This document shows positions 1 to 13,528 of a stretch of 13,528 nt of DNA, piece after piece; position 1 is the first letter of the stretch; each line of letters begins with the position of its first letter. Origin of the DNA: a virus (taxonomy: Duplodnaviria; Heunggongvirae; Uroviricota; Caudoviricetes); IMG/VR virus record IMGVR_UViG_2778261256_000011. One strand, 5' to 3'. Both the position numbers and the translations under genes were made by a program. The notes below the pieces were generated by a model. That model searched no databases, had not been told where the DNA came from, and saw only the letters and a program-made list of their open reading frames with translations.

Positions 1-570
1 TGTCGTTCTCAAAATCGGTGGAGCTGCATGACAAAGTCATCGGGCATTATCTGAACATAAAACACTATCAATAAGTTGGAGTCATTACCCGCATGATTCA
101 GCAGATAAATCCTTGAAAGCAGGTACTCAGCCCTCAGTGAACAGAATAAGTCAGCGTAATGTACTTTAGTGCTGACCACGTGCTCTGTATGATACAGAAT
201 CTATCTACTATAAACGAAAATACAGCACGATCAATGCTCACACTCTATATGGGACGTTCGTACCTGGACATGATTATCTGTGTTCAATGTCCCCGCATGA
301 CCGTCTTAACATCCAGAATATTACGTTTCCAAAAAAACCAGAAATGATAAAAAATGAGCTTAACGTACAATAATTTTCGATATCCAAACTGACCCCGTAA
401 AGGATGTTTCGGCTCTCTTATCGCAGCGTCTGAAACTGGCAGTGCTTGTTTGGCATGTCCGGATAGACCCGAGTGCCACCAGTCAGCCAAAGAGGTTGCG
501 ATTTCGATGTATGGGAAGTTCGTTGGCTTCCCCAATGACAAAATCAAGAAAACCAGAAAGGTAAAAACAC

Positions 571-3500
571 ATGAAGGCTCTGATGGTCAGAACTGACTTC
601 TCCCTGGGAGAGTCGGCTCTAAAAGCAGAAAACGCGGTGAAAATCGCGAGAGACGCTGGCTACACCGCTGTCATTTCCGCCGACAGCATGAATATTGCCA
701 GTGTAATCCCTCTGCAACGTGCCGCTGGCGACGACATGTCGGTAATTTGTGGCGTTAAGCTGAATGTTGTCGACGATCCGACATACGAGCACCGCGCTCG
801 CTTGGCGAAAGAGTCAGGAAGATGTATGGAATCATTAGTTCGTGATCGCAGCTACTGTTTCACGGCACTGATAAAGAATGAACAAGGTTATCGCGACGTG
901 TGCGAACTGATGACCTTAGCGAACAAACGCGAGCAATTCTACTTTGTCCCGCGTCTGGCGCTTGAGCAGCTGGCAGCCGCATATGCCAAAGGCAACATCA
1001 TCCTGCTGACGTCCGACATTGGCAGTGTATTCCAGCGCCGGGACTTCGCAAAAATTATCGGGACGCTGGTCACAGCTGGCGGTCGCGATAACTTCTACAG
1101 CGTGGTTTATCCGCACCCTACCCCATTCTACGACCAGATTAACGTCCGGGCGATGAAAGTGGCGAGCGCACTGAAAATAGAGCCAGTGGCGTTCTATCCC
1201 GCTTATTACGAAGCGATCGACGACGCTGACATTAAAGACATTGCGCACATGGTTACGAACAACATCAAAATCGACCAGCCGCATCGTCTGCGCATCCCCC
1301 ACCAGCGAGATAACGCTGTTAATGGTCGTCGCCATCTCCTTGAAGCGCTGAAAGCCTTCTCCGTTCGCATGGGCGTACCGGTAACAGCTGCAATGGCCTC
1401 AACAACGCAGGACACCATTATTGAAGCCTGCACATGGCGCTGGCATGAACTGCCACCAGCACTGCCCAAGATGGCAGACGACGAGCCTGCAACGCTGATG
1501 AAGCTGGCTGTCGCGGGGCTACGCAAGCGTCTAACTACTAAAGAGTTTGGCTACACACCACAGGCTTCTGAGCACCGAGTGTATGTTGAGCGACTGAAGT
1601 ACGAAATGGACACACTGACCCGTCTGGGCTTCTGTGGCTACTTCCTGATGGTACGCGATCTGATGAATCACAGCCGTGAAACTGGCATTCCTGTCGGGCC
1701 AGGTCGTGGTTCCTCTGCCGGTTCTCTGGTGGCGTGGTGCATAGGCATAACCAACGTCGATCCTATCCGTCACGGTCTTCTGTTTGAGCGTTTCATCAAC
1801 CCTGAACGTCTTGACTTACCGGATGCGGATCTGGACTTCAGCCAGGCACGTCGTCATGAGGTGATCGAGTATCTGAATGAACGCTATGGCGAAGATTACG
1901 TTGCCGGTATTCCAAACTTCACCTATCTGGGCGCCGCTTCTGCGCTGCGAGACACTGCGCGTATTTACGGTGTCGACGCTGCGGATATGGCGGTATCCAA
2001 AGAGTTCAAGAATCTGGAAGACGATAGCCTGTCTCTGGAAGAGCTGCGCGAGCAACTGGCCAGCCTGGACAAATACGCCACGAAAAACCCGGAAGCGTTC
2101 AAAGCGGCGTGTAAGCTACAAAGCCTGATGCGTGGTTTTGGCCGTCATGCAGCGGGGATGATCGTCGCTGGCGTTCCACTGGTAGAGCGCACGCCCGTCG
2201 AGCTGCGTGGCAACGCTCGCTGTATTGCATTCGATAAACGTTACTGCGAGGCAATGGGGCTGATTAAGCTGGACGTTCTCGGTCTGGCAACGCTCGATCT
2301 GCTGGATAGCGCGAAACGCTACATCAAAGAGAGTACCGGGGAAGACATCAATCTCGATGCTATCCCACTGGACGATCGCAAAGTTCTGGATGGGTTCGCT
2401 GCAGGGTACACTCAGGGCGTATTCCAGCTGGAGTCCGGCCCCATGCGCAAGCTGCTTAAAGATCTGGGCGGTGGCATTGAGCCAATGAGCTTCAAAACCG
2501 TTGTCGCCACGACCGCACTCTTCCGACCTGGCCCGATTCAATCAGGCATGTTGGACGACTATGTCTCCGTGGCCAAAGGCTTCATGGCTCCACATTCAAT
2601 TCATCCGCGTCTTGAGGAAGTCACCCGGGAGACTAATGGTGTTTTGCTCTATCAGGAACAAATCATGCAAAGTTCCCGAGTACTTGCCGGGTTCTCTATG
2701 GCCGAAGCAGACGCTCTGCGTTCCGCTATCGGTAAAAAGAACATGGATAAGATGAAAGCGATCGGCAGCGATTTTGTAGAACGAGCACAAGCAGGCTGGG
2801 TGACACTGTCACTCAAAAATGGAGGTACTGTAGAGGTTCACAAACACGCAAAACTGGATTGCTCAGACGGTAAGCGTAGAAGCTACAGCGAGGCTATTAG
2901 TGACGGCATAGACTACGTGGAGATCGTCTCTGAACAAGAAGGTCTCAGTAAGGAAAAAGCCCAAGAAATATGGGACGCCTTTGAGAAGTTCGGTGGATAT
3001 GCCTTCAACAAATCACACAGCGTTGCTTATTCTTTAATCAGCTATCAGTCTATGTGGTTAAAGACACATTACCCTGCTGAGTTCTTCGCTGCTGCGCTCA
3101 CCATTCTGGGCGAGGATAAGCACCAGGGCTTAGTTAAAGATGCGCTGACCTATGGCATTCGCGTATTGCCACCAGACGTTAACGTGTCATCTAACCGAAT
3201 TGAGATCCGCACGCTGGAAGACGGCAGTCAGGTTCTGTATGCACCATTCTCTGCTGTGAAAGGCTGCTCTGAGAATGGTTGCCAGGCCATCATGAGAGCG
3301 CGTGAGAAAGTTGGCGGCAAATTCGAATCACTGGCGCAATTTGAGGAATCTGTCGAGAAGCGAGCATGTAATAGCCGGGTACGCGAGTCGCTGCAAAAAG
3401 TCGGTGCGTTCGCATCGATTGAGCCTGGCTGTCTGCCAGCGACAGATCCGGAACGACTGCGCGACCAGGCAGAGTTGATGGGCAATCTGGTGATCGACGC

Positions 3501-4077
3501 TGTAAAAGCCTCTCGACCGTTCGAGATGAACCCTAAGCGCTCTGCCGAGGTGAATGTACTGATGACTCGCATGGCGGCCGAAATGGGTCTGGGAGACGAC
3601 CTGATCCGCCCAAGCATTGGCATTAAGCCGAAAATCATGGTCATTCTGGACAACGCGAACGGCAATGATGGGCGTACCGGCTACTTCATGGAGAACGGCT
3701 ACGACGACTTTAAGGCGAAGTTGCTTACTGCAGGCGATCTGCGCATGGGCGATCTCTACGTCACAGGCGTGTGCAAAAAGGTGAAGGACAAAGAGAAGGA
3801 CTACACCAAAGACGAGATCGGCCAGTTCACCGACTTTATGCGTGAAGAGATCAATCTGGTGCGTCCGACCTATGTACTGACGTGTGGCAGCCGGGCGACG
3901 TCGCTCTTCAACAACAAGAGCAAACCATCCGACCTGGTTGGACGCAAAGAGTATCTGCCGGAGCTGGATGCGACCGTTTTCTACGGATTTAACCCGAATA
4001 TCCTTTACTTCCGACCGGAAGAAGGAGAGCGACTGGAGGCCATTCTGACTGATATTGCGGAGACGATAAATAAGTAA
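571..4077 (+). CDS. dnaE: DNA polymerase III alpha subunit homologue (DnaE-type, family C replicative polymerase), 1168 aa
   Basis: Translation contains the hallmark DnaE palm/fingers motifs: GYFLMVRDLMNHSRETGIPVGPGRGSSAGSLVAWCIGITNVDPIRHGLLFERFINPERLDLPDADLDF, LFRPGPIQSGMLDDY, VLLYQEQIMQ, and FGGYAFNKSHSVAYSLISYQSMWLKTHYPAEFFAA. Length is close to E. coli DnaE (1160 aa). The N-terminal PHP region (MVRTDFSLGES) lacks the two His of the usual HxH metal motif, so it is a divergent paralogue. AAGG Shine-Dalgarno 9 nt before ATG 571; TAA TAA double stop at 4075-4080. Confidence 0.9.
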   Translation: MKALMVRTDFSLGESALKAENAVKIARDAGYTAVISADSMNIASVIPLQRAAGDDMSVICGVKLNVVDDPTYEHRARLAKESGRCMESLVRDRSYCFTALIKNEQGYRDVCELMTLANKREQFYFVPRLALEQLAAAYAKGNIILLTSDIGSVFQRRDFAKIIGTLVTAGGRDNFYSVVYPHPTPFYDQINVRAMKVASALKIEPVAFYPAYYEAIDDADIKDIAHMVTNNIKIDQPHRLRIPHQRDNAVNGRRHLLEALKAFSVRMGVPVTAAMASTTQDTIIEACTWRWHELPPALPKMADDEPATLMKLAVAGLRKRLTTKEFGYTPQASEHRVYVERLKYEMDTLTRLGFCGYFLMVRDLMNHSRETGIPVGPGRGSSAGSLVAWCIGITNVDPIRHGLLFERFINPERLDLPDADLDFSQARRHEVIEYLNERYGEDYVAGIPNFTYLGAASALRDTARIYGVDAADMAVSKEFKNLEDDSLSLEELREQLASLDKYATKNPEAFKAACKLQSLMRGFGRHAAGMIVAGVPLVERTPVELRGNARCIAFDKRYCEAMGLIKLDVLGLATLDLLDSAKRYIKESTGEDINLDAIPLDDRKVLDGFAAGYTQGVFQLESGPMRKLLKDLGGGIEPMSFKTVVATTALFRPGPIQSGMLDDYVSVAKGFMAPHSIHPRLEEVTRETNGVLLYQEQIMQSSRVLAGFSMAEADALRSAIGKKNMDKMKAIGSDFVERAQAGWVTLSLKNGGTVEVHKHAKLDCSDGKRRSYSEAISDGIDYVEIVSEQEGLSKEKAQEIWDAFEKFGGYAFNKSHSVAYSLISYQSMWLKTHYPAEFFAAALTILGEDKHQGLVKDALTYGIRVLPPDVNVSSNRIEIRTLEDGSQVLYAPFSAVKGCSENGCQAIMRAREKVGGKFESLAQFEESVEKRACNSRVRESLQKVGAFASIEPGCLPATDPERLRDQAELMGNLVIDAVKASRPFEMNPKRSAEVNVLMTRMAAEMGLGDDLIRPSIGIKPKIMVILDNANGNDGRTGYFMENGYDDFKAKLLTAGDLRMGDLYVTGVCKKVKDKEKDYTKDEIGQFTDFMREEINLVRPTYVLTCGSRATSLFNNKSKPSDLVGRKEYLPELDATVFYGFNPNILYFRPEEGERLEAILTDIAETINK

Positions 4078-4082
4078 TAAAG

Positions 4083-4107
4083 AAAAACCCGCCATTTGGC
4101 GGGTTTT
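4083..4107. terminator. Bidirectional rho-independent terminator between convergent genes
   Basis: aaaaaCCCGCCatttGGCGGGtttt: GC-rich 6-bp stem (4088-4093 / 4098-4103), 4-nt loop, T-run on the plus strand and A-run (T-run on minus) on the other side. It sits between the polymerase stop and the stop of the minus-strand gene. Confidence 0.65.
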
Positions 4108-4666
4108 ATGCGCAAATTTTTTCGCAGTCTTGCGAGTGACTGAGTGAGCGAGTAACTCTCTCCACCTCATGAATGTCGCCCAACGATCTTATACGCAGGG
4201 CAAGATTCCACGTACTCAATGTGCGCGCGTTACGCACCAGTTCTTCCCGTGCTTTTTCGTCTTTGCTGTCAAGACGACCGCAGTCGTTCAACCATTTAGC
4301 GACTTCCGCCCAGTCCCAGAGTGGAGACTGACCGCTGATACGCTGAACAGGGCAAGGAAAATCACCTTTGCCACGTAATCCGTCTTTAAGCAGAGTAATA
4401 GCCTGGCGCGTTAAGCCAGAGAGTTGAGCAATATCGCTCAAGCCTACCAGTGCTGAATCTACCGATTCCACCACTGCGCCAATGCCTGCTGTTTCAATAT
4501 CAAGGATTGCCGATTCGATTGCTTCATCTAAAGATTTAGCTTCTCGGTCAAATTCTACATACACTGAGTTTCCGTAGTAGCAAATGAGCGCATCATCGCA
4601 ACCGTGGCTATACAGAGCATCTGCGACTACGCAGTACTGACTACAGGTTATCAGAATTATCCCCAT
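4106..4666 (-). CDS. Hypothetical protein with a central helix-turn-helix-like segment; N-terminal region weakly HicB/UPF0150-like
   Basis: 186-aa ORF starting at ATG (plus 4664-4666), convergent with the polymerase gene. Segment LSDIAQLSGLTRQAITLL looks like an HTH recognition unit; the preceding SLDEAIESAILDIETAG resembles the helix of HicB-type antitoxin domains. No convincing Shine-Dalgarno and no partner toxin ORF nearby, so both the call and the function are tentative. Confidence 0.4.
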   Translation of the reverse strand: MGIILITCSQYCVVADALYSHGCDDALICYYGNSVYVEFDREAKSLDEAIESAILDIETAGIGAVVESVDSALVGLSDIAQLSGLTRQAITLLKDGLRGKGDFPCPVQRISGQSPLWDWAEVAKWLNDCGRLDSKDEKAREELVRNARTLSTWNLALRIRSLGDIHEVERVTRSLSHSQDCEKICA

Positions 4667-4756
4667 TTACATCAGCTTATCTACGTCAGCCCTCAAGTTC
4701 TTCAGCAAGCCAGCTCCACCGCCTGATTCCAACATGATAAAATTGATATGCGAAAA

Positions 4757-4775
4757 TAAGTATATAGATAACATT
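4757..4775 (+). promoter_or_regulatory. Copy 1 of bipartite motif TAAGTA-N6-TA(T/A)CATT (TAAGTAtatagaTAACATT), directly abutting ATG 4776
   Basis: Shares the TAAGTA half-site, the 6-nt spacing and 6/7 of the second half-site with the copies at 5226-5244 and 10003-10021. All three lie upstream of plus-strand genes. Confidence 0.3.
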
Positions 4776-5207
4776 ATGAGCACCGATATCTACGAAAAAA
4801 TCATGTCCGATCTGGAGTTCGACCGCGACAATCTGGAGGAAGTCTGGCGTCAGCAACCGCGTCTGTTGATGGAGTATGGCTCTAAGCTGGCACGGGCAGA
4901 ACGTGAGGTTGCAGATGCAAAACTCTCTCTCGACGCGATCGAGGCAAAAATCTATGACAACGAGCGTAAGAGCTTGAGTATGAATGGAATTAAGTTTAAT
5001 GAATCCGTACTGGAAGCGAAGGTTAGAACCAACCCGCAATACCTCGCAAAGCGCCAGAAACTCGACGATGCTCGACACATTGCAGACCTGTACAAGCACG
5101 CTGTAGCCGCCTTCTCCCACCGCCGCGATATGATTGTCCAGGCGTCGAAGATGGCTATCGTAGAGATAGAGCGTCTGGGGGCCGAACGATTCCATTTACC
5201 CCGTTAA
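4776..5207 (+). CDS. Hypothetical charged, predicted coiled-coil protein (143 aa from ATG 4776; the ORF track's alternative start at 4734 gives 157 aa)
   Basis: Open frame with protein-like composition (ARAEREVADAKLSLDAIEAKIYDNERKSL). The overlapping minus-strand ORF 4686-5195 has Cys-rich, non-protein-like composition. Neither candidate start has a clear Shine-Dalgarno; 4776 was chosen because the conserved motif copy lies immediately upstream of it. Confidence 0.45.
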   Translation: MSTDIYEKIMSDLEFDRDNLEEVWRQQPRLLMEYGSKLARAEREVADAKLSLDAIEAKIYDNERKSLSMNGIKFNESVLEAKVRTNPQYLAKRQKLDDARHIADLYKHAVAAFSHRRDMIVQASKMAIVEIERLGAERFHLPR

Positions 5208-5225
5208 TTTATGCTAGATAGTAAG

Positions 5226-5244
5226 TAAGTACTAATCTATCATT
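5226..5244 (+). promoter_or_regulatory. Copy 2 of bipartite motif TAAGTA-N6-TATCATT (TAAGTActaatcTATCATT), about 80 nt upstream of the ssb start
   Basis: 15/19 positions identical to the copy at 10003-10021 with identical half-site spacing; the core AGTACT is palindromic. Confidence 0.3.
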
Positions 5245-5326
5245 CTTCTCGCTCGAAAGAGCCACGAACAAACGAACGCCCAATGCGCATAGCGCCAATG
5301 GCCACAATCACAACAAGGAGAAATAC

Positions 5327-6343
5327 ATGTCTAAGTCATTACTTGATCTGCTTAACAAGACCCGTGGCGATATTGCTTCCAAACGTGGCAATAACATTGA
5401 TTTGACCCGTCTGAAAGATGGCAATAACTATCTGCGCATTTTTCCGAACAAGGACGATCCGAATGGCGTGTTCTTCCAGACTTTCGGTATGCACTACGTT
5501 AAGCATCAGAATGAGGAAGGCAAAGATGTAACCACCGCCTATATCTGCGAACAACACACCCACGGCCACGCTTGCCAGCTGTGTGAGATGGTTATGGAAG
5601 GTCGCGCTCGCTTTAAGGGCAACAAAGCGATGGAAGAGCGCATTAATAGTATGCGTGCTACGCCGCGTTATCTGGTCAACGGTGTTCTGTCTGCGCGTGA
5701 AGACTTTGCGGACGCAGAGAAATGCCAGCTAATTGAGCTGCCGTCTACGGTCTTCGACGATATCTGCAAAGTGATGTCCGAAGATATTGCGGACGATATT
5801 GGCAACCCACTGAGCAAAGAAGAAGGCTATGCGTTCCTGATTAAACGCACCGGTTCCGGTCGTGACACCAAGTACGACGTATCCCCGAAACGTAAAGTCT
5901 ACAAAGGCGACATTCCTGAGAAGCTCTGGACTACCCAACACGATCTGATCGCATATGCGAACCAGTCTGACGAAACTCGTTTGCTGTCCACGGCTCGCAC
6001 TATGGGTCGTCTGATTGGTATTGCGGCTCCGGCAGCAACTATGCCCTCACCAGCCATTTCTTCCGCTGCAAAATCAGCCGCAGCTGGACTGCCAGGCTTT
6101 GGCTCTATCACTGGACATACGGAAGGCACAGCTGCTGTCGCTACAGCACATACTCCGGCGCCAGAGTCCACCAGCCTGGTTGATGAAGAGATCCTGCGAG
6201 CAGCTGAAGCTGAGTTCAAACCGGAAGAAGCGAAAGCTCCGGAAGCCACCGAAGCCGCAAGTGCTTCAGCATCTGCTGCCGCTGCATCTGTACCAGCTGA
6301 TGAAGGTCTCGATGACCTGCTGGCTGAACTGGACGCTCTGTAA
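5327..6343 (+). CDS. T4 gp32-like single-stranded DNA-binding protein with zinc-binding subdomain, low-complexity linker and acidic C-terminal tail
   Basis: N-terminal pattern LKDGNNYLRIFPNKDDPNGVFF parallels the gp32 LDNAGNGQAVIRFLPSKND region. His/Cys cluster CEQHTHGHACQLC fits the gp32 His-Cys3 zinc site. C-terminal third is Ala/Ser/Pro/Glu-rich and ends in the acidic DDLLAELDAL. Strong AAGGAG Shine-Dalgarno 6 nt before ATG 5327; TAA stop followed by a terminator. Confidence 0.75.
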   Translation: MSKSLLDLLNKTRGDIASKRGNNIDLTRLKDGNNYLRIFPNKDDPNGVFFQTFGMHYVKHQNEEGKDVTTAYICEQHTHGHACQLCEMVMEGRARFKGNKAMEERINSMRATPRYLVNGVLSAREDFADAEKCQLIELPSTVFDDICKVMSEDIADDIGNPLSKEEGYAFLIKRTGSGRDTKYDVSPKRKVYKGDIPEKLWTTQHDLIAYANQSDETRLLSTARTMGRLIGIAAPAATMPSPAISSAAKSAAAGLPGFGSITGHTEGTAAVATAHTPAPESTSLVDEEILRAAEAEFKPEEAKAPEATEAASASASAAAASVPADEGLDDLLAELDAL

Positions 6344-6359
6344 TCCCATAACGTGACCA

Positions 6360-6388
6360 GTAAGGCGTCTGCGGACGCCTTACTTTTT
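6360..6388 (+). terminator. Rho-independent terminator after ssb
   Basis: GTAAGGCGTCtgcgGACGCCTTAC: perfect 10-bp stem with a 4-nt loop, followed by TTTTT (6384-6388). Confidence 0.75.
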
Positions 6389-6403
6389 GGAAGGAGTGTA
6401 CCG

Positions 6404-7348
6404 GTGAATTATCTCTTTGTGGACGGTAACAGCCTGGGCTATTACCACCAGCAATCCGACAAATTACACAACGGCGAGATGGAAGTTCAGGCGGCTTTTG
6501 GCTTCGTGAAGAACGTTCGTCGTTACGCCTCAATTCTCCATGCCCGGCCAATGATCTTGTGGGATGGATTCAGCGACAAACGTCGCGACTTCTACCCGGA
6601 GTACAAAGCGAACCGCGACGACGACCCGGACATGAAGAAGATGAAAGAAGGCTTTGCCATCCAGAAGCCGTACATCTTGAAAATGATGACCGCGCTGGGC
6701 GTTAACCAACTCATTGCAAAGGACGCAGAAGCGGATGACCTGGCTGGAATGCTGGTCTCTCGTCTGGCTCCGCAGCCGACTGTTGACCATATCTATCTGC
6801 TAACGGGCGATGGCGACTGGCTCCAGCTTGTTCGTGAGAACGTGAGCTGGATAAGCCTGCGTGAAGACGCCAAGCACAAGCAGGTGAACTTCGAACAGTT
6901 CGCAGAGCTGACCGGTCTGCCGACCCCACGCGCGTTTCTGGAAGCGAAAGCGTTGCAGGGCGATAACTCGGACAACATCAAAGGCGTAGGTGGCATTGGT
7001 GATGGTGGCGCGAAAGAGCTGCTTCATGAATGGGGAAGCGTGGCCGCAATGGTACGCGGCATTAACGACGGTTCCATTGTCATCAACAAAGGTCGCTATA
7101 AGACGGCATTCAACAAGCTGGCAAAGAACGCCTTCAACGAGAAGACGGGCTGCCGGATGCTCGAAGCCTTTAAGCGCAACATGATGCTGATGAACCTTAT
7201 CGACACAAAATTCCCACCCAGCGAAATCGAGTCGATTAAAGGCGCACGCGATATGAGCGCCTTTGAACAGATGTGTTACGAGCTGAATTTCCGTTCGTTT
7301 CTGGAAGATCTGGAAGTGTTTGTTCTGCCGTTTGAGAGGTATTGCTGA
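6404..7348 (+). CDS. 5'-3' exonuclease / flap endonuclease (DNA Pol I 5'-nuclease / T5 D15 / T4 RNase H family), GTG start
   Basis: Conserved family motifs: LFVDGNSLGYY (N-terminal metal site), EADDLAGMLVS, LLTGDGDWLQL, and the H3TH motif ALQGDNSDNIKGVGGIGDGGAKELL. The GTG at 6404 is 7 nt after GGAAGGAG and lies just downstream of the terminator hairpin; the ATG at 6353 used by the ORF track would put the hairpin inside the coding sequence. TGA stop at 7346-7348 overlaps the next ATG (TGATG). Confidence 0.85.
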   Translation: MNYLFVDGNSLGYYHQQSDKLHNGEMEVQAAFGFVKNVRRYASILHARPMILWDGFSDKRRDFYPEYKANRDDDPDMKKMKEGFAIQKPYILKMMTALGVNQLIAKDAEADDLAGMLVSRLAPQPTVDHIYLLTGDGDWLQLVRENVSWISLREDAKHKQVNFEQFAELTGLPTPRAFLEAKALQGDNSDNIKGVGGIGDGGAKELLHEWGSVAAMVRGINDGSIVINKGRYKTAFNKLAKNAFNEKTGCRMLEAFKRNMMLMNLIDTKFPPSEIESIKGARDMSAFEQMCYELNFRSFLEDLEVFVLPFERYC

Positions 7349-7614
7349 TGCTGAAATCCATCATTAATGGCGGGGCAACTACGCCAACCATGCTGGCAAA
7401 GGAGATTGTTTTCTGCCACGGCGAGCACGCTGTGGTAGCGCTGCCGAACATTCTGGGCGCTGCTGGCATCTCTGCTACTGAGCGTGAGTTCGCGCTGGTC
7501 AGTGAGCAGGTCGTGAAGATCATCGCTCGCGTCGCCAAACACCTGAACCACGACGCAATCAAGTTTGACGAAGCCGCTGCTTCGAAGCGAATCAACGAAT
7601 CAAAAGGAGCCTAA
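7348..7614 (+). CDS. Hypothetical 88-aa protein, translationally coupled between the nuclease gene and recA
   Basis: ATG overlaps the upstream TGA; TAA stop 2 nt before the recA ATG; GAGG about 9 nt upstream. No recognisable motifs. Confidence 0.5.
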   Translation: MLKSIINGGATTPTMLAKEIVFCHGEHAVVALPNILGAAGISATEREFALVSEQVVKIIARVAKHLNHDAIKFDEAAASKRINESKGA

Positions 7615-7616
7615 TC

Positions 7617-9959
7617 ATGGCAAAAGGCAAATCCGCACTGGCACTGGCGCTGAAAAAGAAAATCGGCAGCAATGACGAGATTCAGAAGGTCTCCCACTGG
7701 ATTGACTCCGGTTTCCCTCCACTGAACAAAGCCATTTCCTGACGTTACGACGGTGGTTTTCCGTGTGGGCGTATCGTTGAAGTCTTCGGGCCACCAAGCG
7801 CGGGGAAATGTGTTACCGCAGACACCATGCTGCTGACGGAGCGTGGAATGGTAACAGTGAAAGAACTGTTTGAGATTGAGGGGCACAAAGCAACATGCAC
7901 TACTCGCGATGTAGAGCATAACGTTGGACTCATCAATGAAAATGGCGTGATAGAGAAGACCTCACACCTGACATGGAACAACCGTCGCAAATTCAAGCGC
8001 ATTAAGCTGGCATCAGGGGGTTACATCGAGGCTACGTTCCGTCACCCAATTCGTGTGGTTGACGACTTAGGCAATATCGTCTGGCGGTATGCTGAAAAAA
8101 TCAGTGTAGGCGACACGATTCCTTCAATGGTTGGCACACATCAATTCGGCGATCAGCACTTGGATGCCAATATCGCAAAACTGATGGGCTATTTAATTGC
8201 TGACGGATACGTGGCCTCTGAAAATTCTGTGCATTTTTCTAACACAGATCCATTCATCAAGGATGAGTACTACCGCCTCATTTCGCTGGTATCAGACAAG
8301 ATGCCAGTTACGAGAAAACATAACGGCTCGGAAGACCATGTGCTGTTTAGCAAAGAGGTGCGTTCGCTGCTTTTTAAAGAATATGGTCTGGAGTATGAGA
8401 AAGCTGCTGGCAAGCAGGTTCCGTTGAGTGTGCGTCGCGCCAATAGCGAGGCTCAAATTGCATTCCTTCGCGGCTACTTTGAGCTGGAATGCCACGTCAA
8501 TGATGGTCGCTGCATTGAGGTTGTGAGCGCGAGTGGGTTGCTGCTACAGCAAATTCGCCTCATGCTCCTGAATCTGGGGATTACGTCAACTATCTCTGAA
8601 AAACACGTCGCAGGTTATAAAAACATATATTACCGGCTGTCATTCAGTGGCTCTAACTACGACCTTTTCCTGTCAACGATTGGGTTCGAGTCTCCGGCTC
8701 GTTTAGCAGTGGCAACCAAACGGGACATTAGTTTTGACCGCACTTATTTAGGCTACGTTCCGCACATCAGCGGCTTAGTGAAATCACTCTACGAGTCACT
8801 CACCAAGACCTCTCGTAAAGACTACGTTCTGGTAGATCACGTTATTGGCCGCGGCGATCGTGTCGGAATAGACAAACTGCGAGAAATCTATGTCTCCTTC
8901 ATTGGCAGAAAGAATCGTTTTAACGAGCATCTGTTTGCACAACTGGCAGCGGTAATTGACTCTAACTTGTTCTACGACGAAGTCGTGGCTATTGAGGAAG
9001 GTGAAGCACCAACGTTCGACGTAGCGATGCCGGAAACACACTCTTTCTGGTCTAACGGGATTATCAGCCACAACACATTCCTCGCGACGGCTGCGATGGT
9101 GTCAGCACAAACACAGGATGGTCTGGCCGTATTCCTTGACCACGAAAACAGTTTCGACGTTGGTCTGGCGGTAGCGAACGGACTGAACGCCGACGAAGAC
9201 GACGGTCAGTGGGTCTACAAACAGCCGGATACCTTCGAAGACTCCGTAGAGCTGATCGGCACAATCCTCAAGCTGGTGCGCGACGAAGAGCTTATTCCGG
9301 AAACAGCCCCTATCTGCATCGTAGCCGACTCTCTGGCGTCGATGGTTCCGAACTCGAAGGCTGAGAAGTTCGACAAGATGGCAGAAGGCACTGCGAAGGA
9401 CAAAGATCAGCTGAACATGAACGACAACACGGCGCTGGCGCGCGCGACAAGTGCGAACTTCCCTACTCTGGCGCTTTGGGCGCGTAAGTACAACGCGTGC
9501 ATCATCTTCTTGAACCAGGTGCGTACCAAAATTGGTGTGATGTTTGGCGATCCGACTACGTCTCCGGGTGGCGACTCTCCGAAGTTCTACGCGTCGGTGC
9601 GCATCCGTCTGGGTGCATCCGTCATGAAGGATGGCAAAGAGAAGATCGGACAGGACGTTGGCGCCGAGTGCATTAAAAACAAAGTCGCGCCTCCGTTTGG
9701 CAAATGCTCATGGAAATTCTACTTCGACCCGACTCGCGGGCTGGACGTCGTCGAGTCTCTGGTTGAATACATGCTGGAGGAAGGATACCTGCCCAAGAGC
9801 GCCAGCGGGCGTGTGGAAATTGGCGAGAAGAAATACACCAAATCGCAGATCGTCGAGATGTACCGCGAGAAGCCACTCCCGGAAATCATCGCAGCACTCC
9901 AGGCGATAGACGAACGGCGAGCGAAAGAGTCGTCACCAGCAGAGACAGAAGAAGCGTAA
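7617..9959 (+). CDS. recA: RecA recombinase homologue (bacterial RecA type) interrupted by an intein in the P-loop and by an in-frame TGA in the N-extein; may be a pseudogene or need stop-codon readthrough
   Basis: AAGGAG Shine-Dalgarno 7 nt before ATG 7617. N-extein MAKGKSALALALKKKIGSNDEIQKVSHWIDSGFPPLNKAIS, then TGA (7740-7742), then in the same frame RYDGGFPCGRIVEVFGPPSAGK (Walker A; compare E. coli RecA [21 protein letters not shown]). C-extein TFLATAAMVSAQ ... CIIFLNQVRTKIGVMFGDPTTSPGGDSPKFYASVRIRLGA closely matches RecA [38 protein letters not shown]. No ATG/GTG/TTG lies in frame between the TGA and the P-loop. Spliced product would be about 357 aa. Confidence 0.85.
7809..9074 (+). mobile_element. 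Intein (422 aa) with LAGLIDADG homing endonuclease domain, inserted between the Walker A Lys and the following Thr of RecA
   Basis: Begins with Cys directly after GPPSAGK (CVTADTMLLTE, block A) and ends with SHN followed by a +1 Thr (block G). Block B TxxH is present (ATFRHPIRV). Two LAGLIDADG motifs (LMGYLIADGYV and FLRGYFELECHV). Block F-like VVAIEEGEAPTFDVAMPETHSFWSNGIISHN. Removing the segment restores a contiguous GPPSAGK-TFLATAAM P-loop. Confidence 0.85.
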
Positions 9960-9965
9960 TCACAA

Positions 9966-9987
9966 GACGTCCATTGGACGCCTTTTT
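9966..9987 (+). terminator. Probable rho-independent terminator after recA
   Basis: GACGTCCattGGACGCC: 7-bp stem with one mismatch and a 3-nt loop, followed by TTTTT (9983-9987), 7 nt after the recA TAA. Confidence 0.5.
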
Positions 9988-10002
9988 ATACTTGAAAGTA
10001 TA

Positions 10003-10021
10003 TAAGTACTTACTTATCATT
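10003..10021 (+). promoter_or_regulatory. Copy 3 of bipartite motif TAAGTA-N6-TATCATT (TAAGTActtactTATCATT), 28 nt upstream of ATG 10050
   Basis: Contains the perfect 10-bp palindrome TAAGTACTTA; matches the other two copies in both half-sites and spacing. Confidence 0.3.
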
Positions 10022-10049
10022 TCTACACCCAAACGACAAAAGGAAACAC

Positions 10050-10250
10050 ATGATTAAGGGTTATCTCATGGCTGTTTCAGCAGTGGTATCAGTCTGCTTT
10101 ATTTACGGTTTACTGGTTCCATCGCTTATATCAGCTAAAAGCGATCTGGCCTTCTTTATCGGACTTGCCATCGCTTTAATCTTCCCGGTTGCCTTGTTAA
10201 AAGCTGGCCGCAGGTATATCAACTCACTCAATAAAACTAAGGAGAAGTAA
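10050..10250 (+). CDS. Small (66 aa) predicted two-helix membrane protein
   Basis: Two hydrophobic stretches (AVSAVVSVCFIYGLLVPSLI and LAFFIGLAIALIFPVALL) separated by a short polar turn; basic C-terminus. AGGA 5 nt before the ATG; TAA stop. Confidence 0.5.
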   Translation: MIKGYLMAVSAVVSVCFIYGLLVPSLISAKSDLAFFIGLAIALIFPVALLKAGRRYINSLNKTKEK

Positions 10251-10253
10251 GTA

Positions 10254-10445
10254 ATGAAGAAAGGTTTACTGGCGGTGGCTTTGGCTGCTATTTGCACAAT
10301 GGGTCTGACCGGCTGCGATCGCGTGGAACCGGGATACGTTGGCATTAAGGTAAACAAATTGGGTGAAGACAAAGGTATCGGTGAAGTTGTCGGCGTTGGC
10401 CGTCAGTGGACTGGTCTGAATACCGAGCTGTACACCTCTCTTTAA
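10254..10445 (+). CDS. Small (63 aa) predicted lipoprotein
   Basis: Signal peptide MKKGLLAVALAAICTMGLTG followed by Cys (lipobox LTGC). GGAG 9 nt upstream. Mature part about 43 aa (DRVEPGYVGIKVNKLGEDKGIGEVVGVGRQWTGLNTELYTSL). Confidence 0.5.
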   Translation: MKKGLLAVALAAICTMGLTGCDRVEPGYVGIKVNKLGEDKGIGEVVGVGRQWTGLNTELYTSL

Positions 10446-10468
10446 GTCATCTTAAATGACTCTGAGGT

Positions 10469-10516
10469 GTCTGTTAAACCTGTGGCGATTCAGTCTATTA
10501 AACCTGTAGCGATTCA
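10469..10516. repeat. Two tandem copies of a 24-bp unit (GTCTGTTAAACCTGTGGCGATTCA / GTCTATTAAACCTGTAGCGATTCA; 22/24 identical)
   Basis: Direct reading of the sequence: units at 10469-10492 and 10493-10516 in perfect register. Located in the intergenic region where the sequence appears to shift to lower GC, upstream of hsdM. Confidence 0.8.
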
Positions 10517-10677
10517 CTTTATGGTGTCATAAACTTAAATCTAGCGCCGGGTAGAACAAGTTAATCGAACGATGTAGCGGCCATTTAGGCGTTACAGAAA
10601 GAACAGAATTTTAAATTTATAGTGAAGCCGTTGCAGCAACTTTGTGGGGTGCAACCAACACTGAACAGGAAAAGAAA

Positions 10678-13107
10678 ATGGATCATAGTGTACATAACAA
10701 GCTCATCTCATTTATTTGGAACATTGCCGACGACTGTTTACGTGATGTGTACGTTCGCGGTAAGTACCGCGATGTGATTTTACCTATGGTGGTATTACGA
10801 CGTTTAGATACGTTACTTGAACCCACCAAAGAAGCCGTGCTTGAAGAGGTCAAGTTCCAAAAAGAAGAGATGCAAGCCACGGAGCTTGATGATGAACCAT
10901 TGAAGGCGGCTAGTGGTTATGTTTTTTACAATACATCTAAATGGACCCTGAAATCCCTGTTCAACACCGCAACGAATAACCAACAGATATTACTCGCCAA
11001 CTTTGAAGAGTACCTGCTTGGCTTTAGCGATAATGTTAAAGAAATCATTGAATGCTTTAACCTCAAGTTGCAAATTCGTCACATGGCCTCAAAGCAAGTC
11101 CTTCTTGATGTCGTCGAAAAGTTTGTTTCCCCTTACATCAACTTAACTCATGAAACGGTCGAAGACCCAGATGGCAACAAGATGCCAGCCCTTACTAACC
11201 TGGGTATGGGGTACGTGTTCGAAGAGTTGATCCGTAAGTTCAACGAGGAGAATAACGAAGAAGCCGGTGAGCACTTTACACCTAGGGAAGTGATTGAGCT
11301 GATGACACACTTGGTTTTTGACCCAGTGAAAGAGCAGCTACCATTGACCATGACCGTTTACGACCCTGCGTGTGGTAGCGGTGGTATGCTCACTGAATCT
11401 CAAAACTTCATTGAAGAGAAATACCCGAACGACAGCCGAGATATTTACCTTTACGGCAAAGAGATCAATGACGAGACCTACGCGATTTGTAAATCGGACA
11501 TGATGATCAAAGGTAACAACCCTGAGAACATCAAGGTAGGCTCAACCTTGTCTACCGACGAGTTTGCGGCTTCTCGCTTTGACTTTATGTTGTCTAACCC
11601 GCCATACGGTAAGAGTTGGGCGTCTGAACAGAAGTACATTAAAGACGGCAGTGATGTGATTGACCCGCGTTTTAAGGTTAGCCTGAAAGACTATTGGGGA
11701 AATCTCGAAGTGGTGGATGCCACGCCACGTTCGAGTGATGGCCAGCTGCTTTTCTTAATGGAGATGGTCAACAAGATGAAAGATCCGAGCGTAAGTCCAT
11801 TAGGCAGCCGGATTGCCTCTGTTCATAACGGCTCATCGCTCTTTACCGGTGATGCGGGCAGTGGCGAAAGTAATATTCGTCGCTTCATCATTGAAAACGA
11901 CATGCTAGATGCCATCGTTCAGTTACCTAATAACCTGTTCTATAACACTGGCATTACCACTTACATTTGGGTGTTGAACAACAATAAACCTGAGGCGCGT
12001 AAAGGTAAGGTGCAATTAATTGATGCCAGCTTGCTCTACCGTAAGTTGCGCAAGAACTTAGGTAACAAAAACTGCGAATTTGCGCCTGAGCACATCACGG
12101 AAATTACCGATACTTACCTCGCGTGTAAGGATGTTGAAAGAGCACTGGATGCAAACAATGATCCTGTTGGCATCGCCAGTAAGGTATTCAGCAATGACGA
12201 TTTTGGCTACTACAAAGTCACTATAGAGCGCCCAGATCGCCGCAAAGCCAAGTTTACTCAAGACGCAATAGCCCCACTGCGTTTTGATAAGCAACTTAGT
12301 GAAGTGATGGAGTACGTGTACGCAGAGCACGGCGAACGTGTTTACGAAAAAACTGGCTACGGGTCAGCTCAGAAAAAGAGCTTCTTAAAATCCATCGAGA
12401 AAGACATTCTTTCTTGGTGTGAAGATAACGACATCAGTCTCAATGCTAAGGCTAAGGCCAAACTGCTTGATGTGAAACACTGGCTGGCGCTAAAAGCATT
12501 GCTTGAAACTGCACAAACGCTGATGGCTGACATCGGTAGCATTGAATTTGATGACTTCAATAGCTTTAAAACCCAAGTTGATAAATCGCTAAAAGCCCAT
12601 GCTATTAAGCTTTCAGCACCTGAGAAAAATGCCATTCTTCACGCGGTGAGCTGGTATGACGAAACCGCCAAGAAAGTGGTTAAAAAGGTAGTTAAATTAA
12701 CGGGTGATAAATTAAACGACCTGCTGGAGCGCTATGAGTGTGAAGTCGCTGACTTGCCAGATTTTGGTTATTACCCCGTTCCTTCAGCAGAAGGCGGTAA
12801 AAAAGGCGAGTATATCACTTACGAGACCAATTCAGACCTGCGAGATACAGAATCTGTTCCATTAAAGCAAAGCATTTACCAGTACTTCCTAGATGAAGTG
12901 AAGCCTCATGTCGATGAAGCATGGATAAACCTAGATACGGTAAAAATTGGCTATGAAATCAGCTTCAATAAGTATTTCTACCGTCATAAACCGCTGCGTA
13001 GTTTAGAAGAGGTCGCAACCGACATCATCAACCTAGAACAAAAAGCCGAAGGTCTCATTGCGCAGATATTGGGTGTTAAAGTGGCGGAAGCTCAGGGAGA
13101 AGCGTAA
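10678..13107 (+). CDS. hsdM: Type I restriction-modification system methyltransferase subunit HsdM (long form, about 809 aa, with C-terminal extension)
   Basis: N-terminal HsdM domain (ISFIWNIADDCLRDVYVRGKYRDVILPMVVLRRLD), AdoMet motif I VYDPACGSGGML, and N6-adenine catalytic motif IV LSNPPYG. Start moved to ATG 10678 (AGGA 7 nt upstream) rather than the upstream alternative-codon start at 10642. TAA stop overlaps the next ATG (TAATG). Confidence 0.85.
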   Translation: MDHSVHNKLISFIWNIADDCLRDVYVRGKYRDVILPMVVLRRLDTLLEPTKEAVLEEVKFQKEEMQATELDDEPLKAASGYVFYNTSKWTLKSLFNTATNNQQILLANFEEYLLGFSDNVKEIIECFNLKLQIRHMASKQVLLDVVEKFVSPYINLTHETVEDPDGNKMPALTNLGMGYVFEELIRKFNEENNEEAGEHFTPREVIELMTHLVFDPVKEQLPLTMTVYDPACGSGGMLTESQNFIEEKYPNDSRDIYLYGKEINDETYAICKSDMMIKGNNPENIKVGSTLSTDEFAASRFDFMLSNPPYGKSWASEQKYIKDGSDVIDPRFKVSLKDYWGNLEVVDATPRSSDGQLLFLMEMVNKMKDPSVSPLGSRIASVHNGSSLFTGDAGSGESNIRRFIIENDMLDAIVQLPNNLFYNTGITTYIWVLNNNKPEARKGKVQLIDASLLYRKLRKNLGNKNCEFAPEHITEITDTYLACKDVERALDANNDPVGIASKVFSNDDFGYYKVTIERPDRRKAKFTQDAIAPLRFDKQLSEVMEYVYAEHGERVYEKTGYGSAQKKSFLKSIEKDILSWCEDNDISLNAKAKAKLLDVKHWLALKALLETAQTLMADIGSIEFDDFNSFKTQVDKSLKAHAIKLSAPEKNAILHAVSWYDETAKKVVKKVVKLTGDKLNDLLERYECEVADLPDFGYYPVPSAEGGKKGEYITYETNSDLRDTESVPLKQSIYQYFLDEVKPHVDEAWINLDTVKIGYEISFNKYFYRHKPLRSLEEVATDIINLEQKAEGLIAQILGVKVAEAQGEA

Positions 13108-13528
13108 TGGAGCGTTTAGCATTGATGCCGAAATATGAGGATTATGTAGATTCTGGAGTTGAATGGTTAGGGGATTTACCGAGCCATTGGGACGCAGTAA
13201 AAATGAAGTTTCTTTTCAAAGATACGTCGATGAAAAACAAGCCTAACGAAACTTTATTATCTGTTACACAAAGTCAAGGTGTTGTTCCCAGAGAGTGGGT
13301 AGAAAACAGAATGGTTATGCCATCTGGCAATCTAGAAAGCTTCAAGTTCATTGCAAAAGGTGACTTTGCTATAAGCCTTCGTTCCTTTGAAGGTGGTTTG
13401 GAGTATTGTCATCATGATGGAATCATAAGCCCTGCTTATACGGTGTTAAAAACTAAGAAAGATTATCTACTTGCAGGATATTACAAATATTTGTTTAAAA
13501 GTCAGACTTTTATTTCAGAGTTACAAAC
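13107..13528 (+). CDS. hsdS: Type I restriction-modification specificity subunit HsdS, 5' portion only (runs off the window end)
   Basis: Translationally coupled to hsdM. Translation MERLALMPKYEDYVDSGVEWLGDLPSHWDAVKMKFLFK ... KGDFAISLRSFEGGLEYCHHDGIISPAYTVLKTKKDYLLAGYYKYLFKSQTF fits the HsdS target-recognition-domain pattern. It is absent from the ORF track because no stop is reached before the window ends. Confidence 0.75.
   Translation, partial: MERLALMPKYEDYVDSGVEWLGDLPSHWDAVKMKFLFKDTSMKNKPNETLLSVTQSQGVVPREWVENRMVMPSGNLESFKFIAKGDFAISLRSFEGGLEYCHHDGIISPAYTVLKTKKDYLLAGYYKYLFKSQTFISELQ

Follow-up and report, generated by a model that had tools for sequence, protein, structure and literature searches.

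The 24-bp tandem repeat lying ahead of the type I restriction-modification (R-M) genes in virus record IMGVR_UViG_2778261256_000011 is most likely a relic that insertion-sequence activity left behind where an acquired R-M island begins on its left side. The repeat, the hairpin beside it and the stop codon of a small upstream "lipoprotein" gene are all parts of a 79-bp insertion-sequence scar. Unless another record is named, coordinates refer to the window, i.e., the whole 13,528-nt stretch of DNA that was analyzed.

The repeat as the left end of an IS3-family element

The tandem reported in the preliminary description was borne out by Tandem Repeats Finder, for which the segment 10469-10516 was the top-scoring array in the window (period 24, 2.0 copies, 91% matches, score 82); its two copies, GTCTGTTAAACCTGTGGCGATTCA and GTCTATTAAACCTGTAGCGATTCA, are identical at 22 of 24 positions. 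Hits to a 243-bp junction query came from 1,283 plasmid records (Klebsiella, Escherichia, Enterobacter, Citrobacter, Pantoea, and others), and nearly all of them spanned only the first 55-62 nt (window 10438 to approximately 10494). In three unrelated plasmids the conserved stretch entered an open reading frame on its left (MSGKRYPEEFKIEAVKQVVDRG...), and similarity was lost directly after ...GCGATTCA. Full copies of the element, found at loci L003-L005, L012, and L015, run on into orfA of an IS3-family orfA/orfB arrangement, and the OrfA protein of locus L014 is exactly identical to a deposit entitled "ISEhe3 orfA [Enterobacter hormaechei]"; it is on this depositor's label for an identical OrfA that the name ISEhe3 rests. 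The junction repeat unit is identified from these matches as the left end of ISEhe3, of the IS3 family, read on the minus strand of the window. Two other assignments were discarded. Transposase binding sites of the Tn7 or Tn402 type, suggested by the TGT... start and the repeated units of approximately 22 bp, were given up in view of the 55-nt match that runs into an IS3-family orfA, and the name ISEc52, attached by PGAP to a gene at locus L011, belongs to an IS911-like element inserted within the ISEhe3 copy there.

ISEhe3 was first named in Erwinia herbicola/Pantoea agglomerans and is common in Shigella, E. coli, Klebsiella, and Enterobacter. One copy adjoins gtr genes in an E. coli chromosome, and fragments of the element have been reported in a gtr gene setting (PMC4924310). 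The element is 1,228-1,229 bp long, with ends TGAATCGCC...GGCGATTCA, and has terminal 5'-TG...CA-3' dinucleotides and imperfect inverted repeats, the left (IRL) reading TGAATCGCCACAGGTTTAACAGACAC and the right (IRR, reverse complement) reading TGAATCGCCACTGATAATCTAGACAC. The two have 11 of 11 terminal nucleotides and an AGACAC block (nt 21-26) in common; only the IRL is present in the window. In full relatives, the orfA ATG lies at element nt 64 and OrfA has 92 amino acids. RefSeq annotates an "IS3 family transposase, programmed frameshift" at locus L015, while neither orfA nor orfB is found in the window. Around three complete copies (L005, L012, and L015), a small sample from contexts that are possibly rearranged, no matching flanks of the kind left by 3-4 bp target duplications were seen.

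By its match to full copies, the segment 10438-10492 on the minus strand represents nt 1-55 of the ISEhe3 left end, i.e., the IRL plus leader, and stops 4-9 nt short of the orfA ATG position. Repeat copy 1 (10469-10492, minus strand) is the last 24 nt of this remnant and corresponds to the terminal 24 nt of the IRL, TGAATCGCCACAGGTTTAACAGAC on the element strand; the other 31 nt of the remnant are leader. A promoter scan found leftward promoter-like hexamers (TTAACA-17-TAAGAT) within the remnant. A hairpin described earlier at 10445-10461 (AGTCAT-CTTAA-ATGACT) does exist, as the inner stem of a longer hairpin at approximately 10432-10470 (outer stem ACACCTC/GAGGTGT, inner stem AGTCAT/ATGACT), but it is the conserved leader hairpin of ISEhe3, present in every copy examined, and not a terminator of the lipoprotein gene. 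Folding gave a dG of -13.9 kcal/mol on the plus strand (z -3.9 versus shuffles) and -16.4 on the minus strand (z -4.8); an Rfam scan of 10000-11000 gave no match. The 55 nt of the window are thus identical or nearly identical to full ISEhe3 copies, complete with IRL, promoter-like hexamers, and leader hairpin; the window differs from them in having neither a transposase gene nor a right end and in carrying two direct left tips where normal copies have one.

Normal ISEhe3 copies stop precisely at ...GCGATTCA, which makes the second unit a supernumerary one. Repeat copy 2 (10493-10516, minus strand) is read as an isolated IRL tip, 24 nt long, that stems from a second ISEhe3 copy and is oriented like copy 1. 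In relatives other than the closest kin of the window it has the form GTCTATTAAACCTGTGGCGATTCA, here termed the A-variant, to which the window adds one G>A change, and the A-variant is exactly the normal IRL of another natural ISEhe3 isoform, the copy at locus L004. The possibility that copy 2 is a right inverted repeat, i.e., a relic of an IRR-IRL circle junction or dimer, was rejected. The ISEhe3 IRR reads GTCTAGATTATCAGTGGCGATTCA or GTCTAGATTATCAGT..., which neither unit of the window resembles, and copy 2 is not an IRR because its interior, TTAAACCTGT, differs from that of the IRR, GATTATCAGT; moreover, the two units are in direct orientation.

The acquired island, its joints, and its distribution

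Homology to plasmids of Vibrio gigantis and Shewanella aestuarii starts at 10515, right after copy 2. The segment 10517-10564 (plus strand) is the 3' remnant of a gene for a putative WYL-domain regulator, consisting of its last 15 codons (LYGVINLNLAPGRTS) and a TAA at 10562-10564. The gene is intact in the Vibrio and Shewanella plasmids, where its product matches Pfam WYL with E = 1.3e-14 and its end sits 113 bp upstream of hsdM, and the translation from the window matches the WYL C-terminus. Among the 80 closest relatives of this HsdM, nine, the very closest among them, have a WYL gene immediately ahead of hsdM, so that WYL-hsdM is taken to be the native arrangement, and the insertion-sequence tip marks what is recognizable as its break point. 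WYL-domain regulators of the BrxR/CapW type occur upstream of defence operons. The native locus is like them in having a WYL gene ahead of hsdM, with putative regulation of the R-M genes, and the window differs in retaining only the last 15 WYL codons.

Downstream of the remnant lie hsdM (10678-13107, plus strand), encoding a predicted methyltransferase of 809 amino acids with Pfam HsdM_N and N6_Mtase domains, and the 5' part of hsdS (13107-13528, plus strand; annotation from pYUXYEH3934-1), which runs off the window. In relatives, hsdS is followed by a DUF4268 gene and then hsdR, and in pYUXYEH3934-1 the Pfam matches are Methylase_S for HsdS and HSDR_N, ResIII, and SWI2_SNF2 for HsdR. The operon is assigned by these domains to type I restriction-modification (HsdM, HsdS, and HsdR), with an extra DUF4268 gene between hsdS and hsdR. 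The HsdM protein is unusually long, its C-terminal ~320 amino acids being free of any Pfam domain, and more than 580 relatives with the same long HsdM occur across Proteobacteria, Bacteroidota, and other groups; the DUF4268 gene (20140-21303 of locus L002, from pYUXYEH3934-1) has a weak NucS-like match.

The R-M operon has 92-95% DNA identity with that of the marine V. gigantis p1 plasmid and is also found on a Shewanella plasmid. In both of these the repeat is absent and the intact WYL gene stands in its place. Only in V. gigantis p1 are tnsD and tnsE of a Tn7-like element annotated directly upstream of WYL-hsdM; no tns genes are present in the window or in pYUXYEH3934-1. Further downstream on V. 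gigantis p1 lie an ATPase gene, an HTH gene, and SAVED-domain and nucleotidyltransferase genes (CBASS-like), and taken together, the genes of this region (locus L007, 7715-24286) resemble a defence island carried by a marine plasmid.

The native WYL-hsdM intergenic region (10565-10677, plus strand) contains weak promoter-like hexamers, the sequence GTTGCA-N14-TGCAAC, and a ribosome-binding site, and is near-identical in V. gigantis, V. thalassae, and a Kangiellaceae metagenome-assembled genome. The GTTGCA/TGCAAC repeat had been located correctly at 10630-10655 but wrongly called imperfect, as its arms are perfect. It folds no better than shuffled sequence (z = +0.5), and since, by our own estimate, two perfect 6-bp arms no more than 20 nt apart should arise approximately once per 240 bp, it is at chance level and statistically unremarkable. 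Its arms are unchanged in three close relatives, in which the spacer varies, and it may perhaps be a real cis element of the operon. At three distant WYL-hsdM loci (L039, L044, and L053), a different short perfect hairpin occupies the corresponding place in each case, e.g., CCACAC-GATTAG-GTGTGG and GAAACGAG-AGC-CTCGTTTC, so that the presence of a hairpin between the two genes may be a conserved structural trait.

To the left of the scar, 10.4 kb of the window resembles Salmonella phage SSU5, with 94.5% identity over 396-10437 in a megablast search of phage records (63% window coverage) and a range of 94-98% along the backbone. Matches to pHCM2 of S. Typhi and pMT1 of Y. pestis also stop at 10437, in DNA annotated "SPFH domain-containing protein". 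Given the SSU5 match and this common end point, the window is classified as an SSU5-group (SSU5/pHCM2/pMT1-like) phage-plasmid. Backbone genes predicted by Pfam, all on the plus strand, encode a DnaE-type polymerase (571-4077), a gp32-like single-strand DNA-binding protein (5327-6343), a 5'-3' exonuclease (6353-7348), and a RecA-like protein with an intein and LAGLIDADG endonuclease (7827-9959). The nearest deposited relative is E. coli pYUXYEH3934-1 (locus L002), with 99.47% identity over 396-13528; the 70 differences all precede 9968, and identity reaches 100% over the island (10438-13528).

Several features of the backbone stand apart from the junction. The dnaE segment 3261-3822 holds 36 of the 70 mismatches with pYUXYEH3934-1 and looks like a backbone recombination tract. 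The RecA-like recombinase gene (7617-9959) contains a 1,275-bp intein at approximately 7809-9083 with a LAGLIDADG endonuclease, which is missing from SSU5. A G>T change at 7740 turns codon 42 of this gene from GGA to TGA (stop at 7740-7742), and because the codon is intact in pYUXYEH3934-1, either the gene is a pseudogene here or the stop is a sequencing error. Positions 1-90 are the end of an IS1, and 91-395 are unmatched in pYUXYEH3934-1, which has an AAA ATPase gene there; the left ends of the plasmids differ.

The joint between backbone and scar could be read by three-way comparison. In SSU5, the full-length gene SSU5_062 ("lipoprotein/SPFH domain protein", 831 bp, 3355-4185 of locus L001) reads ...GCTGTACACCT/TCCCC, the reverse strand of ISEhe3 reads ...CATGGGCACCT/CTCTTTAAG, and the window reads ...GCTGTACACCTCTCTTTAAG. 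A 5-bp microhomology, CACCT (10433-10437), links ISEhe3 (nt 56-60) with the SPFH gene at its codon 61. As the joint is within ISEhe3, it arose by illegitimate deletion and was not made by transposase. The small 63-codon gene at 10254-10445 (plus strand) is a truncated SPFH/band-7 lipoprotein gene with 61 native codons, and the stop that was attributed to it is foreign, its last two codons and TAA coming from the ISEhe3 remnant.

The right edge of the island lies beyond the window and was read in pYUXYEH3934-1. Of the gene 3' of hsdR only the first 93 bp remain, and they run directly into internal sequence of an IS911-like orfB; this IS911-like fragment extends for approximately 620 bp to a right inverted repeat (...GTTGACCACTTCA), which abuts the backbone inside the SSU5_064 homologue. 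In all, approximately 8.9 kb stands in place of 1.47 kb of backbone comprising SPFH codons 62-276, a DUF2591 gene, and the start of SSU5_064. The preliminary description took the junction for an insertion or recombination site of a horizontally acquired defence cargo and called for a search for related genomes free of the R-M module. This view held: such genomes were found (SSU5, pHCM2, and pMT1), they keep an intact SPFH gene, and homology to them ends at 10437. No integrase or recombinase gene was found adjoining the repeat or in the island, as judged from the window and the pYUXYEH3934-1 annotation and Pfam matches.

A compositional break at the repeat had also been proposed. GC content does fall, from 51.0% in the backbone (91-10437) to 43.1% in the island (10438-13528), with 40.0% in the junction itself (10438-10677), and GC3 shifts from 0.59 in dnaE, 0.65 in the exonuclease gene, and 0.59 in recA to 0.50 in hsdM and 0.33 in hsdS. 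The change is gradual, however, and is not located exactly at the repeat. Because GC is already down to 44% at 9960-10437, in backbone DNA common to SSU5, and backbone windows range from 0.43 to 0.56, composition alone cannot place the junction.

The tandem was found in 56 complete genomes of E. coli as well as in 30 records of plasmids, and it adjoins this R-M operon in every locus opened or read across the joint. Its left flank has only two forms. Form A, the SPFH fusion of SSU5-like phage-plasmids, was seen in 28 plasmids whose sequence spans the joint completely, and also in contigs from metagenomes and IMG/VR. In form B, which is a chromosomal island but occurs on plasmid pPN43 too, nt 46 of ISEhe3 is the insertion point of an IS911 that a group II intron has split. 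This intron (ltrA) interrupts the IS911 left of the R-M block at loci L009 and L010 (10487-13977) and L006 (approximately 11500-12018), and the R-M island of the E. coli chromosome adjoins raffinose/sucrose utilisation genes and Ag43. Form A retains more of ISEhe3, and form B retains more of the gene 3' of hsdR; neither derives from the other, and comparison of the two indicates a shared ancestor that already had both tips and the truncated WYL gene. SSU5-like phage-plasmids of the E. coli/Shigella clade have been described as carrying R-M systems and undergoing insertion sequence-mediated gain and loss, in a survey preprint whose accessible part gives no account of this junction, of the SPFH truncation, or of the origin of the R-M block (10.1101/2025.09.12.675607).

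Origin of the tandem tips

The favored account of the repeat involves two insertions. An ISEhe3 with the A-variant IRL would have inserted into the 3' end of the WYL gene, parting the R-M operon from its regulator. A second ISEhe3 in the same orientation would then have used as its target a GTC triplet within the IRL of the resident copy, at 22-24 nt from the tip, so that the outer 24 nt were cut off from their element. What was left of the first copy would have been lost through recombination between the direct element bodies or by a later deletion. Finally, a microhomology-mediated deletion in the phage-plasmid lineage would have fused the SPFH gene to the element leader. The order of these events is a reconstruction, because no intermediate was found. 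Neither a single ISEhe3 in the WYL gene nor a full-length ISEhe3 with the 24-nt tandem was present among the plasmids, E. coli genomes, and metagenomes; a metagenome scan for the tip/WYL joint returned nine loci, all nine with the tandem already there, and a pattern scan of genome contigs for tandem tips returned none.

Two properties of the repeat favor an origin from two elements: its phase coincides exactly with the element tip, and its outer unit, in the usual form with one mismatch, equals the natural IRL of the L004 isoform. A second type of tandem, which combines a 20-nt tip (starting with GTT) with a full IRL, occurs in a Leclercia plasmid (L011, 3001-3048) and in an IMG/VR contig (L110, 179-209), with unrelated outer flanks. 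Among the outer flanks of the IRL at 114 other distinct insertions, GTT (9/114, p = 8e-5) and GT (16/114, p = 0.002) are over-represented, a modest preference, and as both tandem joints start with GTN, both lie at favored target triplets. Apparent extra tandems (H297-H299) proved to be single ends with chance extensions. At L011, no remainder of the resident copy was found beyond the far side of the element, so that secondary loss must be assumed; this, the missing intermediate, and the lack of evident target duplications around the three complete copies count against the two-insertion account.

Alternatively, an ISEhe3 variant that was already double-tipped, and whose outer tip was active, might have inserted into the WYL gene as a unit, the tandem then being a heritable trait of an isoform. 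The two unrelated flanks of the 20-nt tandem at L011 and L110 are as expected if a tandem-ended element transposes, and the outer tip at the present locus abuts the WYL remnant precisely. This explanation is nevertheless unlikely: outer tips of 24 and 20 nt are without the inner conserved AGACAC block (nt 21-26) and may not bind transposase, the 24-nt tandem was seen at one site only among plasmids, E. coli genomes, metagenomes, and viral contigs, and the duplication would still have to arise beforehand, most simply by self-insertion. Replication slippage or unequal exchange could have duplicated 24 bp at the element end, with point mutations then separating the copies, and it is true that short tandem duplications are common and that these copies differ at only one or two positions. 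Such a process is very improbable here, given a duplication boundary that is the exact element terminus and has no flanking microhomology, an outer copy equal to the pre-existing natural IRL variant at L004, another tandem of 20 nt in the same tip phase elsewhere, and joints that are both at the favored GTN target.

It had also been suggested that the units are binding sites regulating the R-M genes, as in an operator or iteron, or an att-like recombination site. They do form direct repeats approximately 160 bp upstream of hsdM, and the G>A change in copy 2 creates a very weak promoter-like TTAAAC-16-TATTAA on the plus strand. On the other hand, the native Vibrio, Shewanella, and Kangiellaceae operons share the same intergenic region and are without the 24-mer, no plus-strand promoter passes a consensus scan, the units are identical to ISEhe3 left-end tips in more than 1,200 plasmids in unrelated contexts, and the right end of the island holds an IS911-like right inverted repeat instead of a matching unit. 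Because the native operon does without the units and there is no recombinase in the vicinity, neither a regulatory nor an att function is supported, and such a role is scarcely credible as the source of the repeat.

The two-insertion origin raises the question of whether ISEhe3, inserting in the same orientation, prefers GTN triplets in the interior of its own IRL, at a distance of 18-24 nt from the tip, and so gives rise to double-tipped elements that persist or move. Direct left-tip tandems in three contexts among approximately 118 distinct IRL flanks are far above random targeting, and such a preference is possible, if on balance doubtful. End-targeted insertion, in which an IS3-family element prefers the end of a resident copy as its target, has been described for IS911 (work of Loot/Turlan/Rousseau/Chandler, cited in PMC7986276). 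The likeness to ISEhe3 would lie in an IS3-family element that targets the end of a resident copy of itself. In IS911, insertion reportedly adjoins the outside of the resident end and yields an abutted, inverted junction of the IRR-IRL type. ISEhe3 differs from this reported geometry in that its tips are direct and the joint is 24 nt inside the resident IRL (20 nt at L011 and L110). Self-targeting by ISEhe3 would possibly be a mode distinct from the end-adjacent targeting of IS911, and a minor novelty.

Present function and meaning

As a scar with neither a transposase gene nor a partner right end, the two tips are most likely inert today. A strict promoter scan of the plus strand ahead of hsdM found no consensus promoter, and a relaxed scan gave only weak candidates at approximately 10591-10623, within the native intergenic region. 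Transcription of hsdM probably starts in this retained region or comes from backbone read-through, which is possible because all genes from 5327 onward point in the same direction.

The junction is of an ordinary, known kind, a remnant of a known insertion sequence beside an acquired R-M island in a known class of phage-plasmids. For annotation, its value is that the small "lipoprotein" is to be recorded as a truncated SPFH gene and the repeat and hairpin as an insertion-sequence scar. Direct left-end tandems hint at self-targeting by ISEhe3, a small but testable point for transposon specialists. The scar also allows the history of a defence island to be traced: its operon, with counterparts on Vibrio and Shewanella plasmids, was probably parted from its WYL gene by an element insertion and is present today in chromosomal islands of E. 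coli and approximately 30 SSU5-like phage-plasmids. If self-targeting is true, the first insertion would have cut the R-M operon from its WYL regulator, and may thereby have deregulated a defence cassette that then spread.
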